Translations under genes and position numbers: made by a program
The notes under the pieces: generated by a model
What the model was told of the DNA's origin: nothing
The model's input: only the letters and a program-made list of their open reading frames with translations
Database searches by the model: none
Shown here: one piece after another, positions 127-54,384 of the stretch
How positions within the stretch are numbered: the first letter of the stretch is position 1
Layout: every line of letters begins with the position of its first letter
Assembly: GCA_035572595.1 (NCBI GenBank)
Contig: DATNAM010000161.1
Span: forward strand, 1-55,483
From: Gemmatimonadaceae bacterium
GTDB taxonomy: Bacteria; Gemmatimonadota; Gemmatimonadetes; Gemmatimonadales; Gemmatimonadaceae
Direction: 5' to 3'
DNA: 55,483 nt

Positions 127-1512
127 ATGGAGCCTGACATGAGTGCGTACAGCACGCAGATGAGCGCGGCCCGGAATGGTGAGATCACGGACGCGATGCA
201 GGTGGTGGCGAGGCGGGAGGGGTTGGACGTGGAGGTGGTGCGGAGCGAGGTGGCGCGTGGGCGGCTCATCATCCCGGCGAACGTGCGGCATCTGGCGGGG
301 AAGCTGGAGCCGATGGCGATCGGGAAAGTTGCGGGCGTGAAAATCAATGCGAACATCGGGAACTCGGCGGTGACTTCGTCGATCGAGGAAGAGCTCGAGA
401 AGCTGCATCTCGCGGTTCGGTATGGTGCGGACACGGTCATGGATTTATCGACGGGGAAGGACATCGATGCCGTGCGCGAGGCGATCATCGGGGCGTCGAG
501 TGTACCGATCGGGACGGTGCCGATCTATCAGGCCGTGCTCATGGGGAAGGAGCTCGAGGAGCTGACGGCGAACGACCTGCTCGATGTGATCGAGCATCAA
601 GCGAAGCAGGGCGTGGACTACATGACCATCCACGCGGGGATTCTGCTCGAGCATCTGCCGCTGGTGTACGGGCGCGTGACGGGGATCGTGAGCCGCGGCG
701 GGTCGCTGCACGCGGTGTGGATGATGCACCATCGGAAGCAGAATCCGCTGTACGAGCGGTACGACGACCTGCTCGAGATCCTGCGCCGGTACGACGTCAC
801 CATATCGTTAGGCGACTCGCTCCGGCCGGGGTCGGTGCACGACGCGAGCGACCGGGCGCAATTCGCGGAGCTGGAAACGTTAGGCGAGCTCACCAAGCGG
901 GCGTGGGCGCGGGACGTCCAGGTGATGGTGGAAGGGCCGGGGCACATCCCGATGCAACAGATCGAGATGAACGTGCGCAAGCAGAAGGAGATCTGTTTCG
1001 AGGCGCCGTTCTACACGCTCGGACCGCTGGTGACGGACATCGCGCCGGGGTACGACCACATCACGAGCGCGATCGGCGCGGCGATGATCGGCTGGTACGG
1101 CGCCGACATGCTCTGCTACGTGACGCCCAAGGAGCACCTGGGGCTGCCTAACGCAGAGGATGTGCGGCAGGGCGTGATCGCGTACAAGATCGCGGCGCAC
1201 GCGGCGGACATCGCGCGGGGCCGCGCCGGCGCGCGCGATCGCGACGACGCGCTGTCGCGGGCGCGGTACGCGTTCGATTGGAACGAGCAGTTCCGGCTGT
1301 CGCTCGATCCGGAGCGGGCGCGCGAGTACCACGACGAGACGCTGCCGGCCGAGTACTTCAAGAGCGCCGAGTTCTGCGCGATGTGCGGACCAAAGTTCTG
1401 CTCGATGCACCACTCGCGGACGATCGATGAGGGGATCGCGCAGTTGGCCCGCGAGCGCGGCCTAACAGACGACGCGCCGATCGAGGAAGCGGCGGCGGCC
1501 GCCGGCGACTGA
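127..1512 (+). CDS. thiC: Phosphomethylpyrimidine synthase ThiC (short form)
   Basis: The translation matches ThiC along its whole length. The N-terminus reads [16 protein letters not shown] and the C-terminus has the CX2CX4C Fe-S motif [10 protein letters not shown] took ATG 127 as the start (ATG 139 is also possible). The ORF-track start at 64 lies inside the G-rich tract. Confidence 0.93.
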
Positions 1513-1517
1513 CGGCG

Positions 1518-1901
1518 GTGGCGCTTTCCTCGCGCGAGCGCGCGGCGCTGCGCGCGCAAGCGAACCATCTCGAGGCGACGGTGTCGGTGGGCGCCGCCGG
1601 CATCTCGGCGGCCGTGGTGCAGTCGCTCGAGGACGCGTTCCGCTCACGGGAGCTGGTGAAGGTCCATGTCGGACGGAACGCGAGCGTCGTCGCGCGCCAA
1701 GCGGCGGCGGAGCTCGCCGGCGCCGCACACGCGGAGGTGGTGCAGGTGATCGGACACACCACCACGCTCTTTCGCGAGAATCCGGAGCTCCGCGCCGCGA
1801 GGCAGCGCGCGCGGCGCGCGCCGCCGGGGATCAGTGATCCGCGGTCGTATCGGCCGGTAGCGTCAGCTCCGGCAGCCCTTCCGTTTCGAGCCGGGCGTTG
1901 A
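1518..1901 (+). CDS. yhbY: YhbY-like CRM-domain RNA-binding protein
   Basis: The pattern LRAQANHLEATVSVGAAGIS...ELVKVHV...VVQVIGHTTTLFR matches the YhbY/CRS1 fold family. The start is GTG. The 3' end overlaps the convergent BNR gene by 71 bp. Confidence 0.7.
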   Translation: MALSSRERAALRAQANHLEATVSVGAAGISAAVVQSLEDAFRSRELVKVHVGRNASVVARQAAAELAGAAHAEVVQVIGHTTTLFRENPELRAARQRARRAPPGISDPRSYRPVASAPAALPFRAGR

Positions 1902-53589: not shown

Positions 53590-53889
53590 ATGAGGGACAT
53601 GCACCTGACGCTTCGCCTGTCGCGCGACCTCGCGCGTGCCGTGGCGCGCTGGGCGCGCGCGCACGGTGTGGCAAAATCGCAGGTGGTTCGGGACGCTGTC
53701 GCGAGCTACGTCGGCATGGCGTCTTCGACGGCCGCGTCGGCCGAGCTCGGCGCAGCGATGACGGCGCGGGTGGTCGCGGCCCGGTGGTCCGCGCTGCCGC
53801 ATCTCTCGGCCGAGGAAGCGGGCGGACTGGCGGGCGGCATCGCCGCGAGCCGGACGAGCCTGCCTCAGGTGACGCCGCCGTGGGAGTGA
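53590..53889 (+). CDS. vapB: Ribbon-helix-helix (CopG/VapB-like) antitoxin
   Basis: Has the RHH pattern HLTLRLSRDLARAVARWARAHGVAKSQVVRDAV. Its stop overlaps the PIN gene start (TGATG). The start may be ATG 53599, which follows GAGGG. Confidence 0.7.
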   Translation: MRDMHLTLRLSRDLARAVARWARAHGVAKSQVVRDAVASYVGMASSTAASAELGAAMTARVVAARWSALPHLSAEEAGGLAGGIAASRTSLPQVTPPWE

Positions 53890-54311
53890 TGCTCGACACG
53901 TCGGTCATCATCGCCGGCGAGCGCGGCACGCTTCGCCTCGAGGCCATGCTCGAGTCGCTCGGCGACGAGGCGGTCGCGATCGCGGCCATCACGGCATCGG
54001 AGCTCCTGCATGGCGCACATCGCGGCGCGGACGCCGGCGTGCGTGCGCGTCGCGCCGCCTTCGCCGAGGCGGTGCTCGACCTCGTGCCCGTGTTGCCGTT
54101 TGGTCTCGCGGAGGCGAGGCGGCACGCGCAGTTGTGGGCCGAGTTGTTGGCGGCGGGGGCGATGATCGGACCGCAGGCGCTCTTGGTCGGGGCCACGGCG
54201 CTAGCGCGGGGGTACGGCGTCGCGACAATGAGTCAGCGCGAGTTCGAGCGCGTCGCGGGGCTGCGGGTGGTGCCGGTGTCGCCGTTTCTCGCCCGAGCCG
54301 CCGTCCGTTAG
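53889..54311 (+). CDS. vapC: PIN-domain toxin (VapC-like)
   Basis: Has the N-terminal acidic site MLDTSVII and the segment ITASELLHG. It is 140 aa and coupled to the upstream RHH gene. Confidence 0.75.
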   Translation: MLDTSVIIAGERGTLRLEAMLESLGDEAVAIAAITASELLHGAHRGADAGVRARRAAFAEAVLDLVPVLPFGLAEARRHAQLWAELLAAGAMIGPQALLVGATALARGYGVATMSQREFERVAGLRVVPVSPFLARAAVR

Positions 54312-54384
54312 GCGCGGCCGGCCCGGGTCATGTCTGCGATCGCTCAGGGATGGTGAGGAAGCCCATCGAGCCGCCTCGGTTCCG

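Follow-up and report, generated by a model that had tools for sequence, protein, structure and literature searches.

The heptamer GTTAGGC, counted together with its reverse complement GCCTAAC, occurs 87 times in a contig of 55,483 nucleotides (nt) from a Gemmatimonadaceae bacterium (contig DATNAM010000161.1 of GenBank assembly GCA_035572595.1; the whole stretch is called the window below). The counts, reading frames and comparisons with relatives described here show that a DNA-level force creates and maintains this asymmetric word, in both orientations and about once per 600 bp. By analogy with the uptake signal sequence (USS) of Haemophilus and the DNA uptake sequence (DUS) of Neisseria, the motif may be a third, independently evolved DNA uptake enhancing sequence that is kept by biased uptake and recombination, a reading that we favour tentatively, at a little short of an even chance. 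New here would be an uptake-sequence-like word in a new phylum, with an unrelated sequence and a different genomic placement.

Over-representation of the motif

An exact search of the + strand returned 50 copies as GTTAGGC and 37 as GCCTAAC, in DNA with a G+C content of 67.5%. This agrees with the approximately 87 copies counted in an earlier note on this DNA, whose coordinates were all correct except 22564, the true start being 22565. The 15-fold excess given there matches a null based on base composition, under which about 6 copies are expected, and stricter nulls gave a larger excess. Dinucleotide-preserving shuffles (n = 100) produced 1.9 ± 1.4 copies with a maximum of 6. Shuffling synonymous codons within genes (n = 500), a procedure that preserves every protein and the codon usage of each gene, including the TTA codons inflated by the motif, produced 3.7 ± 1.8 copies (maximum 10) against the 74 present in coding sequence, so that the codon-aware null falls 20-fold short. 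Markov nulls of order 4-5 were rejected as uninformative, because the motif itself contributes 87 of the 97 TTAGG words and these models reproduce the count merely via its sub-words.

The density of GTTAGGC was 1.41 per kb in 113 kb of carrier-clade DNA and 0.015 per kb in 661 kb of motif-free Gemmatimonadales, and the fold-excess of the word is ~45-90x. Full-text searches of the literature found no paper on GTTAGGC as a genomic motif; the hexamer TTAGGC is the telomere repeat of nematodes.

Reading frames, codon usage and flanking bases

Genes were mapped with a codon-usage caller. On an overlapping contig, eight complete genes called by JGI were compared with this map by length, and all agreed. 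By Pfam, the genes belong to unrelated families, including ThiC, two Sortilin/BNR proteins, LigD, Ku, a TonB receptor, SusD, two MacB/FtsX permeases, kinases, extracytoplasmic function (ECF) sigma factors, RNase D, Ada/AlkA, Ogt and others. The frames named in the earlier note are those that we found: 45 of the 87 copies read xxG-TTA-GGC in the sense direction (Leu-Gly), 17 read xxG-CCT-AAC antisense (Pro-Asn) and 11 read xGC-CTA-ACx antisense (x-Leu-Thr). One further copy lies in the sense frame GTT-AGG-C, 8 are at gene ends and 5 are intergenic. Every stop-free frame is used, and the two frames bearing TAG or TAA occur solely where that triplet is the true stop codon of the gene, the motif being the source of the stop codon for 8 of the ~48 genes in the window. 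Within genes the copies are spread roughly uniformly, with no significant positional bias (Kolmogorov-Smirnov test, P = 0.16).

The motif overrides codon preference, as had been suggested. It contains 45 of the 56 TTA codons of the window, along with 11 of 27 CTA and 17 of 40 CCT codons, and the synonymous-codon shuffle does not come near the observed number. The fuller motif is T-(G/C)-C-GTTAGGC-(G/A), a 7-bp core with weaker flanks. Over all 87 copies, T stands at -3 in 42, C at -1 in 63, G at +1 in 43 and G or A at +1 in 68; a recount of the first 34 copies confirmed the flank bias noted earlier, with 22 having C at -1 and 22 having G at +1. The 10-mer TSCGTTAGGC occurs 36 times against 0.23 expected. 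Among Leu-Gly dipeptides, T is found at -3 in 49% of those coded by the motif and in 4% of the others (P=7e-11), and C at -1 in 69% and 28%, respectively (P=2e-6). The complements of T(-3) and C(-1) are enriched in the antisense Pro-Asn context too, and because the enrichment holds in both coding orientations the flank preferences are not coding artefacts. On this evidence the signal is a word in double-stranded DNA that combines a strong core with weaker flanks, which is what a protein-binding preference would produce.

An artefact or a translational effect, be it codon-pair preference, recent duplication or assembly error, is scarcely credible as the source of these copies. Most of them do read Leu-Gly in one frame, as a codon-pair effect would have it, but the codon shuffle yields 3.7 copies and not 74, and ordinary codons encode 134 of the 179 Leu-Gly pairs and most Pro-Asn dipeptides. 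Copies that are antisense, intergenic or part of stop codons, and the strand symmetry of the flanks, also speak against it. Duplication is contradicted by host genes of unrelated families and by flanks that are dissimilar beyond the 10-mer. The motif was found across independent NCBI, JGI, ENA and Logan assemblies, and it is not an assembly artefact because all 20 copies of the first 11.5 kb of the window recur in an independent JGI contig of 99.5% identity (L161). The earlier proposal that the process acts on DNA and not on proteins was thus upheld by the 20-fold failure of the codon null, the strand-symmetric flanks and a synonymous recoding of thiC that is seen in one clade only.

Origin and persistence of the copies

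The ThiC peptides SLGD, TLGE and GLPNA are invariant in 37 relatives, and carriers of the motif alone spell them TCG-TTA-GGC, ACG-TTA-GGC and CTG-CCT-AAC. Copies present in a single species are 1-5 substitutions away from the orthologous sequence, with zero insertions or indels, and the substitutions that make them are in some cases synonymous and in others amino-acid changing (TPN versus TPP, SLG versus SMG). These alignments show that copies arise by ordinary point substitution wherever the sequence tolerates it, the tolerated places being synonymous Leu-Gly, Pro-Asn and x-Leu-Thr recoding, weakly constrained residues, stop codons and terminator loops. Repeats of the repetitive extragenic palindromic (REP) or miniature inverted-repeat transposable element (MITE) type were considered and rejected: 85% of the copies are intragenic, their flanks share nothing outside positions -3 to +1, and the orthologues show substitutions, not insertions.

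Once present, copies tend to stay. Against a locus with 79% nucleotide identity to the window (L162), 15 of 19 copies are kept in place where 3.8 would be expected (P=5e-8), and against one with 83% identity (L081) 8 of 12 are kept where 3.3 would be expected (P=0.005). By these comparisons, copies outlast neighbouring neutral sites by far. The pair formed by the window and L161 is expected to hold ~0.6 single-nucleotide polymorphisms in motif sites, too few for a strain-level comparison.

Peptides that the motif can encode are more frequent than in motif-free relatives (LG 1.25x, P=0.002; PN 1.49x; [SGRC]LT 1.59x), the reversed control peptides standing at 0.85-1.08x. Judged by these values and by the codons listed above, the motif exacts a measurable cost on codon usage and protein sequence. 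A few single-mismatch neighbours are enriched as well (GTTGGGC 3.5x, GTTAGTC 6.5x, GTTAGGA 7x), a mutational halo that fits ongoing gain and decay by point mutation.

The halo bears on a further explanation, namely that a sequence-specific mismatch repair system, of the very-short-patch kind and acting with a cytosine methyltransferase, converts near-matches by biased repair or gene conversion and leaves the motif as a functionless by-product. The origin of copies by point substitution, the clade-specific distribution, the enrichment of some single-mismatch neighbours and the (probably incidental) wealth of repair genes nearby would all suit it. We consider it improbable, however, as mutational bias does not predict the under-dispersed spacing described below, and such repair would feed from one or two neighbour words only; the neighbours that it should deplete are rare in this DNA. 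Known cases, such as the very-short-patch-type process at CCWGG in E. coli, give small excesses, not 50-90-fold, and the window showed neither a vsr-like gene nor one for a DNA cytosine methyltransferase.

Spacing and orientation

The copies are more evenly spaced than chance would place them, as had been suggested. The coefficient of variation (CV) of the gaps is 0.69, compared with 0.99 under uniform placement (P=1e-4). A permissible-site null, in which the same copy numbers were drawn from all permitted sites (Leu-Gly, Pro-Asn and x-Leu-Thr positions, stop codons and intergenic bases), gave a CV of 1.01 ± 0.11, and 0 of 20000 draws were as low as 0.69. Short gaps are scarce (4 under 100 bp versus 12.4 expected, and 10 under 200 bp versus 24 expected), and the longest gap between copies is 2183 bp. 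The window contains no clear island; a region of small open reading frames (ORFs) and an HNH gene at 10.0-12.7 kb has 1 internal copy, a deficit that is not significant.

The two orientations are present at 50:37, not different from 1:1 (binomial P=0.2), and at 12:9 in the carrier locus L001. GC skew is mostly positive along the window, with no switch tracking the orientation of the motif. The earlier note was right that the last 11 copies share one orientation, but the run does not hold up as a polarity signal, since its P is ~0.05 and one 3.2-kb gene holds 8 of the 11, all in antisense frames.

Within the window, then, orientation and GC skew reveal no polarity, which disfavours a polar chromosome-maintenance signal such as Chi (read by RecBCD or AddAB) or the FtsK-orienting polar sequences (KOPS) and SpoIIIE recognition sequences (SRS). 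With Chi and with KOPS or architecture imparting sequences (AIMS) the motif shares that it is a short, asymmetric, over-represented and lineage-specific word. It is non-palindromic and of Chi-like length, and the + orientation is slightly the commoner in DNA of mostly positive skew. Chi and KOPS, however, show strong co-orientation with replication, at densities several-fold lower and with much smaller enrichment. Their strand bias is ~75-90%, which the 57% share found here (P=0.2) excludes in 55 kb that should be one replichore, and one copy per 0.64 kb (1.6 per kb) at ~45-90x excess is far above known Chi sites. With the co-oriented run due to one long gene, we regard this explanation as very improbable.

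Distribution among relatives

Loci of relatives were obtained through ThiC homologues in genome and metagenome collections, and the ENA contig (L162) through a further homologue search; density rests on ~130 kb sampled. ThiC relatives place the window among uncultured soil Gemmatimonadaceae, and carriers are known from metagenomes only. The carrier loci, with their relation to the window and their motif content, are:

Window: reference; 1.57 per kb
L161 (JGI contig): 99.5% identical DNA; all 20 copies of the first 11.5 kb
L081: 83% nucleotide identity; 1.48 per kb
L162 (ENA contig): 79% identity, syntenic with the right end of the window; 1.50 per kb
L163 and L164: methyltransferase 86% identical; ~1 per kb
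L001 (metagenome-assembled genome CRAIB_MAG34): syntenic with window 152-10676 at 71-81% nucleotide identity; 0.98 per kb
L008: ThiC ~86-89% identical; 0.44 per kb

The data for L162 are 20.7 kb of a 90.8-kb ENA contig and include 15 copies in 10 kb outside the region covered by the window; L001 has 10 copies in 10 kb of non-syntenic DNA. Because the motif is dense elsewhere in the clade, the window is not a local outlier. The earlier note had named a window made of recently duplicated DNA among the things that would undo its claim; instead, other regions and other genomes of the clade proved to be dense in the motif too. L008, which includes a 6-kb motif-free stretch (13416-19426), could be a lineage gaining or losing the motif, or of mixed DNA origin.

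About 100 other Gemmatimonadales loci are essentially motif-free, some of them with a ThiC as similar as that of L001, and in the ThiC tree all carriers fall in one clade of 6 of 100 tips. This distribution confines the motif to one narrow clade, of about genus rank, among uncultured soil Gemmatimonadaceae, where it stands at ~1.4-1.6 copies per kb. Carriers include the metagenome-assembled genomes JANWIF01 (CRAIB_MAG34) and DATFBY01 (SMAG_U8540), the bin of ENA ERZ27256652 with contig k141_4035508 and the bins behind JGI Ga0134125 and Ga0157372, whereas JADGGM01 (HOG34) and JBHENQ01 (S5_bin.2) are sisters that do not carry it.

Gene ends, dyads and a terminator

Inverted pairs at gene ends, which the earlier note had named, are present but a weak feature, with 2 pairs among the 87 copies. 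The dyad at 38641-38663 (GCCTAACG-N7-CGTTAGGC) lies between convergent genes, its left copy (38641-38647) forming the TAA stop of an RNase D-like gene and its right copy (38657-38663) being intergenic; the hairpin has 8-9 bp (-16.7 kcal/mol, z -2.7) without a T run. The dyad at 47205-47229 (GTTAGGCG-N9-CGCCTAAC) spans the 15-nt spacer of two convergent genes and forms a weak hairpin. Each arm is the TAG stop of its gene, a kinase gene (44585-47209, +) and an ECF sigma gene (47225-47806, -), and both arms are kept in L162. A single copy (33634-33640) sits in the loop of a strong intrinsic terminator (33619-33661, +; 15-bp stem followed by a T run; -33.2 kcal/mol, z -6.4) behind the ferredoxin gene at 33335-33598.

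An explanation at the RNA level was rejected, as Rfam gave no match in the window and a strong hairpin occurs in 1 of 6 motif-bearing intergenic segments. The ferredoxin is an 87-aa 4Fe-4S protein whose gene shows 72-82% nucleotide identity across Gemmatimonadaceae, and a near-motif tandem, TTAGGTTAGGT, lies at 33293-33303, ~40 bp upstream of its start.

The 7-mer is also an exact fit to the core site of integron attC elements, GTTRRRY / RYYYAAC, a pair of consensus forms matched by just 32 of the 16384 possible heptamers. In attC-aadB the R'' box reads GCCTAAC (PMC12901181). A genome peppered with secondary, attG-like sites of an integron-type tyrosine recombinase is nevertheless highly improbable in our view. 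The copies lie inside ordinary conserved genes, with no cassette array, and lack attC architecture: the sole R''-then-R' pair is 16 bp apart, whereas attC needs R''-L''...L'-R' and extrahelical bases. Pfam scans found no integrase among the window proteins, and no known mechanism would let secondary sites accumulate, persist in place and space themselves evenly. With many consensus sequences available to match afterwards, coincidence is plausible, and we treat the match as such.

A candidate DNA uptake sequence

Uptake sequences occur at ~0.8-0.9 per kb in both orientations, originate by mutation and homologous replacement, and show even spacing, frame bias, peptide enrichment and some dyad terminators (PMC2817400). 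According to one passage of another source (10.1101/2025.10.24.684340), about half of the known uptake sequences are located in terminators. The window motif is unrelated in sequence to the USS of Pasteurellaceae (core AAGTGCGGT) and the DUS of Neisseriaceae (GCCGTCTGAA), and its host phylum is Gemmatimonadota. It resembles them in being evenly spread, made by point mutation and frame-biased, with stop-bearing frames avoided, in having a strong core, weak flanks and some dyads or terminators at gene ends, and in being lineage-restricted and conserved in place within the lineage. The likeness drawn in the earlier note therefore stands for density, orientation, spacing, point-mutation origin, frame bias and peptides, and fails for coding depletion and for inverted pairs and terminators.

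If the motif is an uptake sequence, a DNA receptor of the competence machine would bind the word preferentially, as in Haemophilus and Neisseria, and because of this preference conspecific fragments bearing it would enter cells and recombine at a higher rate. Any allele creating or preserving the word would then spread through the population as a molecular drive, possibly reinforced by selection for self-DNA recognition, and the motif would accumulate until roughly each ~600-bp fragment bears one. We infer uptake bias, competence and a receptor solely by analogy.

Several observations weigh against this reading. Coding sequence makes up ~90% of the window and wholly contains 74 of the 87 copies (~85%), so that there is no coding depletion, unlike in USS and DUS. 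Terminator and inverted-pair copies are few, with just 2 inverted pairs and 1 terminator-loop copy among 87, although the motif does favour gene ends, as the 8 of ~48 stop codons show. The invariant core is 7 bp (10 bp with flanks) compared with the 9-10 bp given for USS and DUS, and the peptide enrichment (1.25-1.6-fold) is below the ~2-fold reported for them. Pfam scans of the proteins of the 55-kb window found no competence or pilin gene. The smallest ThiC clade that takes in every carrier includes 2 tips without the motif. Sister lineages showed no dialects: in 65 Gemmatimonad loci (973 kb) there was no other dispersed hyper-abundant word in a rerun that collapsed tandem copies before the word search. 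Finally, every sequence property found would also fit a selected chromosomal site. We hold the uptake reading no higher than stated at the outset because it is built on analogy, because coding depletion and frequent terminator pairs are not seen, and because a selected site would account for the same properties.

Such a site would serve a clade-specific nucleoid-associated protein, a methyltransferase or self-marking and have no role in uptake; natural selection for a regular covering of the chromosome would hold it in place. Its model is the highly iterated palindrome HIP1 (GCGATCGC) of cyanobacteria, a short hyper-abundant word that reaches ~1 per kb or more, is mainly intragenic, propagates by substitution and is lineage-specific; its function is unproven, and it has been linked to methyltransferases of related specificity. 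HIP1 served as a positive control here and was visible as a CGATCGC excess in cyanobacterial thiC control loci. Strong in-place conservation between species, even spacing with a deficit of gaps under 200 bp, the graded core-plus-flank logo typical of a protein-binding site, equal density in coding and non-coding DNA and the HIP1-like origin of intragenic copies by substitution all agree with a selected site. However, HIP1 is palindromic, whereas the window motif is asymmetric and is not known to be linked to a methyltransferase, and no known nucleoid protein requires an exact 7-10-mer at such density. The window holds no candidate protein or DNA methyltransferase, its sole methyltransferase (54385-55116) being of the small-molecule class I type. 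The distortion of the proteome and the load of rare codons point to a strong force, more readily explained by drive than by a weak benefit per site. We rate a selected site as somewhat unlikely, though it is the main rival of the uptake reading. In a more specific version, which we take to be rather unlikely, the motif is the read-out site of a hitherto undescribed genome-wide self-marking or chromosome-organising system in Gemmatimonadota, not an uptake signal. A clade-specific nucleoid protein, modification enzyme or recombinase could then need the exact asymmetric 10-mer ~every 600 bp, and the requirement would have to be so strong that codon usage, protein termini and dipeptide content were all rewritten by it.

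To our knowledge, sequence-specific uptake tags are known from two proteobacterial families only. Full-text searches likewise retrieved no report of uptake sequences outside Pasteurellaceae and Neisseriaceae, and none of transformation in Gemmatimonas. It is still debated whether such tags originate by unselected drive or because self-recognition is selected for. If the motif is an uptake sequence, the phenomenon recurs in uncultured soil bacteria of a distant phylum, there with a word of unrelated sequence, mostly intragenic placement and frequent use as stop codons, and frequent natural transformation among soil Gemmatimonadaceae would be implied. It could also provide a means of transforming these bacteria, whose genetic manipulation is difficult. 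Close relatives differ in the presence of the motif, and comparing carriers with motif-free sisters could nominate a receptor and date the gain. If it is unrelated to uptake, the motif is a new hyper-abundant genomic word of unknown function, alongside HIP1. For binning carrier genomes, and for detecting foreign DNA in them, the word is in addition an inexpensive marker.

Positions of the copies

Copies are given by position, strand and context, with encoded residues in one-letter code.

807-813 (+): thiC, sense xxG-TTA-GGC (S-L-G); invariant SLGD recoded; common to L081, L001 and L008
879-885 (+): thiC, sense, T-L-G; common to L001 only
1146-1152 (-): thiC, antisense xxG-CCT-AAC (L-P-N); common to L008
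1460-1466 (-): thiC, antisense xGC-CTA-ACx (G-L-T); common to L081
2074-2080 (+): Sortilin/BNR gene 1831-5004(-), antisense, P-P-N
2401-2407 (-): same gene, sense, P-L-G; common to L081 and L001
2650-2656 (+): same gene, antisense, S-P-N
3223-3229 (+): same gene, antisense, T-P-N; relatives T-P-P
4144-4150 (-): same gene, sense, Q-L-G
4489-4495 (+): same gene, antisense, G-P-N; common to L081 and L001
4825-4831 (+): same gene, antisense, Q-P-N
6146-6152 (+): TAA stop of hydrolase gene 6147-6803(-); common to L081
6501-6507 (+): same hydrolase gene, antisense, P-P-N
6579-6585 (-): same hydrolase gene, sense, S-L-G; L001 S-M-G
7555-7561 (-): ligD, sense, R-L-G
8347-8353 (+): ligD, antisense, S-P-N
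8759-8765 (+): TAA stop of ku, 8760-9620(-)
9204-9210 (-): ku, sense, G-L-G
10013-10019 (+): DinB-family gene, antisense, R-L-T
11375-11381 (-): TAG stop of ORF 11377-11655(-)
12704-12710 (-): ORF 12608-12970(-), sense, T-L-G
13036-13042 (+): DinB-family gene 12967-13461(-), antisense, V-P-N
14157-14163 (-): amidohydrolase gene, sense, S-L-G
14364-14370 (-): amidohydrolase gene, sense, G-L-G
14919-14925 (+): intergenic, amidohydrolase / YceI spacer; no significant hairpin
15159-15165 (-): yceI-like gene, sense, L-L-G
15905-15911 (+): intergenic, upstream of peptidase S51 gene
16669-16675 (+): peptidase S51 gene, sense, L-L-G
16801-16807 (+): peptidase S51 gene, sense, R-L-G
17024-17030 (+): TonB-dependent receptor gene, sense, L-L-G
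17594-17600 (-): TonB receptor gene, antisense, G-P-N
18089-18095 (-): TonB receptor gene, antisense, T-P-N
18218-18224 (-): TonB receptor gene, antisense, A-P-N
19078-19084 (-): TonB receptor gene, antisense, R-L-T
19556-19562 (+): TonB receptor gene, sense, S-L-G
19943-19949 (+): TonB receptor gene, sense, A-L-G
20781-20787 (-): susD-like gene, antisense, A-P-N
21935-21941 (+): MacB/FtsX permease gene 1, sense, T-L-G
22565-22571 (+): MacB/FtsX permease gene 1, sense, S-L-G
23351-23357 (+): MacB/FtsX permease gene 1, sense, G-L-G
23879-23885 (+): MacB/FtsX permease gene 1, sense, A-L-G
24361-24367 (-): EamA transporter gene, sense, A-L-G
24565-24571 (-): EamA transporter gene, sense, A-L-G
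25343-25349 (+): UDG-family gene, sense; sole copy in frame GTT-AGG-C (V-R-Q)
26020-26026 (+): MacB/FtsX permease gene 2, sense, A-L-G
26740-26746 (+): MacB/FtsX permease gene 2, sense, S-L-G
27133-27139 (+): MacB/FtsX permease gene 2, sense, A-L-G
27505-27511 (-): MacB/FtsX permease gene 2, antisense, P-P-N
28018-28024 (+): MacB/FtsX permease gene 2, sense, A-L-G
28683-28689 (-): epimerase gene, sense, A-L-G
29214-29220 (-): epimerase gene, sense, P-L-G
30535-30541 (-): intergenic, between ECF sigma gene and kinase gene
31567-31573 (-): Ser/Thr kinase-TPR gene, antisense, C-L-T
31811-31817 (+): Ser/Thr kinase-TPR gene, sense, A-L-G
32117-32123 (+): Ser/Thr kinase-TPR gene, sense, A-L-G
33634-33640 (+): loop of ferredoxin-gene terminator 33619-33661
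35173-35179 (-): pyridoxal phosphate (PLP)-enzyme gene, sense, P-L-G
36102-36108 (-): TAG stop of AI-2E transporter gene 36104-37237(-)
36458-36464 (-): AI-2E transporter gene, sense, A-L-G
38641-38647 and 38657-38663 (dyad): RNase D-like gene TAA stop and intergenic
39706-39712 (-): beta-lactamase-family gene, sense, A-L-G
39832-39838 (-): beta-lactamase-family gene, sense, P-L-G
41109-41115 (+): ECF sigma gene 40912-41514, sense, A-L-G
41379-41385 (+): same ECF sigma gene, sense, E-L-G
42282-42288 (+): PDZ-domain gene, sense, P-L-G
43591-43597 (-): matrixin gene, sense, L-L-G
44122-44128 (-): matrixin gene, sense, R-L-G
44979-44985 (-): Ser/Thr kinase gene 44585-47209, antisense, R-L-T; kept in L162
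45388-45394 (+): same kinase gene, sense, A-L-G; kept in L162
46269-46275 (-): same kinase gene, antisense, G-L-T; kept in L162
46699-46705 (+): same kinase gene, sense, Q-L-G; kept in L162
47205-47229 (dyad, two copies): TAG stops of kinase gene and ECF sigma gene; kept in L162
47423-47429 (-): ECF sigma gene 47225-47806(-), sense, Q-L-G; kept in L162
48296-48302 (-): ogt, sense, P-L-G; L162 TCCTAAC
49762-49768 (+): ada/alkA gene, sense, A-L-G; kept in L162
50077-50083 (+): ada/alkA gene, sense, A-L-G; kept in L162
50309-50315 (+): Sortilin/BNR gene 2, 50212-53448(-), antisense, R-L-T; kept in L162
50642-50648 (+): Sortilin/BNR gene 2, antisense, G-L-T; window-only versus L162
50819-50825 (+): Sortilin/BNR gene 2, antisense, G-L-T; kept in L162
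50947-50953 (+): Sortilin/BNR gene 2, antisense, E-P-N; L162 GTTGGGC
51628-51634 (+): Sortilin/BNR gene 2, antisense, L-P-N; kept in L162
51766-51772 (+): Sortilin/BNR gene 2, antisense, P-P-N; window-only versus L162
52682-52688 (+): Sortilin/BNR gene 2, antisense, G-L-T; kept in L162
53030-53036 (+): Sortilin/BNR gene 2, antisense, G-L-T; kept in L162
54307-54313 (+): TAG stop of PIN toxin gene 53880-54311(+); kept in L162

Other features of the window and its relatives

Three words that a k-mer contrast had put forward as possible dialects, GGGGACTG (L005), GAGATTCG (L008) and CGGGAGTC (L003), turned out to be local intergenic tandem heptamer arrays and were discarded. Intergenic tandem arrays of short G/C-rich units stand next to thiC in several Gemmatimonadaceae, and the unit differs between lineages: heptamers (CGGGAGT, CAGTCCC, GAGATTC) in relatives, and G-rich 10-mers such as GGGGAGTAGG at the left edge of the window. 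The arrays lie at 1-82 in the window, 9760-9795 and 16056-16077 in L003, 11386-11442 in L005, and 11339-11422 and 13496-13576 in L008; those of L008 consist of direct copies followed by inverted copies and give long perfect hairpins. L161, an 18-kb contig, terminates in a poly-G run at the G-rich repeat where the window too has its left edge. A thiamine pyrophosphate (TPP) riboswitch precedes thiC in L001 (9926-10028) and L008 (9915-10017). None was detected in the window, in L161 or in L081, including 4 kb upstream of the thiC of the latter, and the G-rich repeats of the window sit where the riboswitch would be (1-126).

The distance between thiC and the ferredoxin gene is 32 kb in the window (1513-33310), compared with 1-4 kb in most relatives (L004, L006, L009, L013 and others). 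L001, a motif carrier, has the gene order of the window after thiC. Because of these distances and this shared order, the block between the two genes appears to be an insertion or rearrangement specific to the clade. The motif is at full density in this block too.

DNA-repair genes are unusually concentrated in the window (7027-13461, 25082-25840, 37528-38646 and 47927-50188) and encode the end-joining proteins LigD and Ku, two DinB-family proteins, an HNH endonuclease, a UDG-family glycosylase, an RNase D/HRDC protein, Ogt and Ada/AlkA. They carry the motif at the same density as the other genes.

Exact look-ups of three right-end products (the methyltransferase with two alternative starts, and the Sortilin/BNR protein) gave no match. 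A ribbon-helix-helix / PIN toxin-antitoxin pair at 53590-54311 is found at the same position in L162, L163 and L164. The adjoining methyltransferase gene (54385-55116; class I S-adenosylmethionine-dependent, small-molecule type) is free of the motif in the window and in L162. It has many homologues that are 77-86% identical, one of them, at 83%, labelled Ramlibacter, and homologues at ~63-65% are labelled Brocadiia and Chloroflexota, a pattern that suggests that the gene is horizontally mobile.

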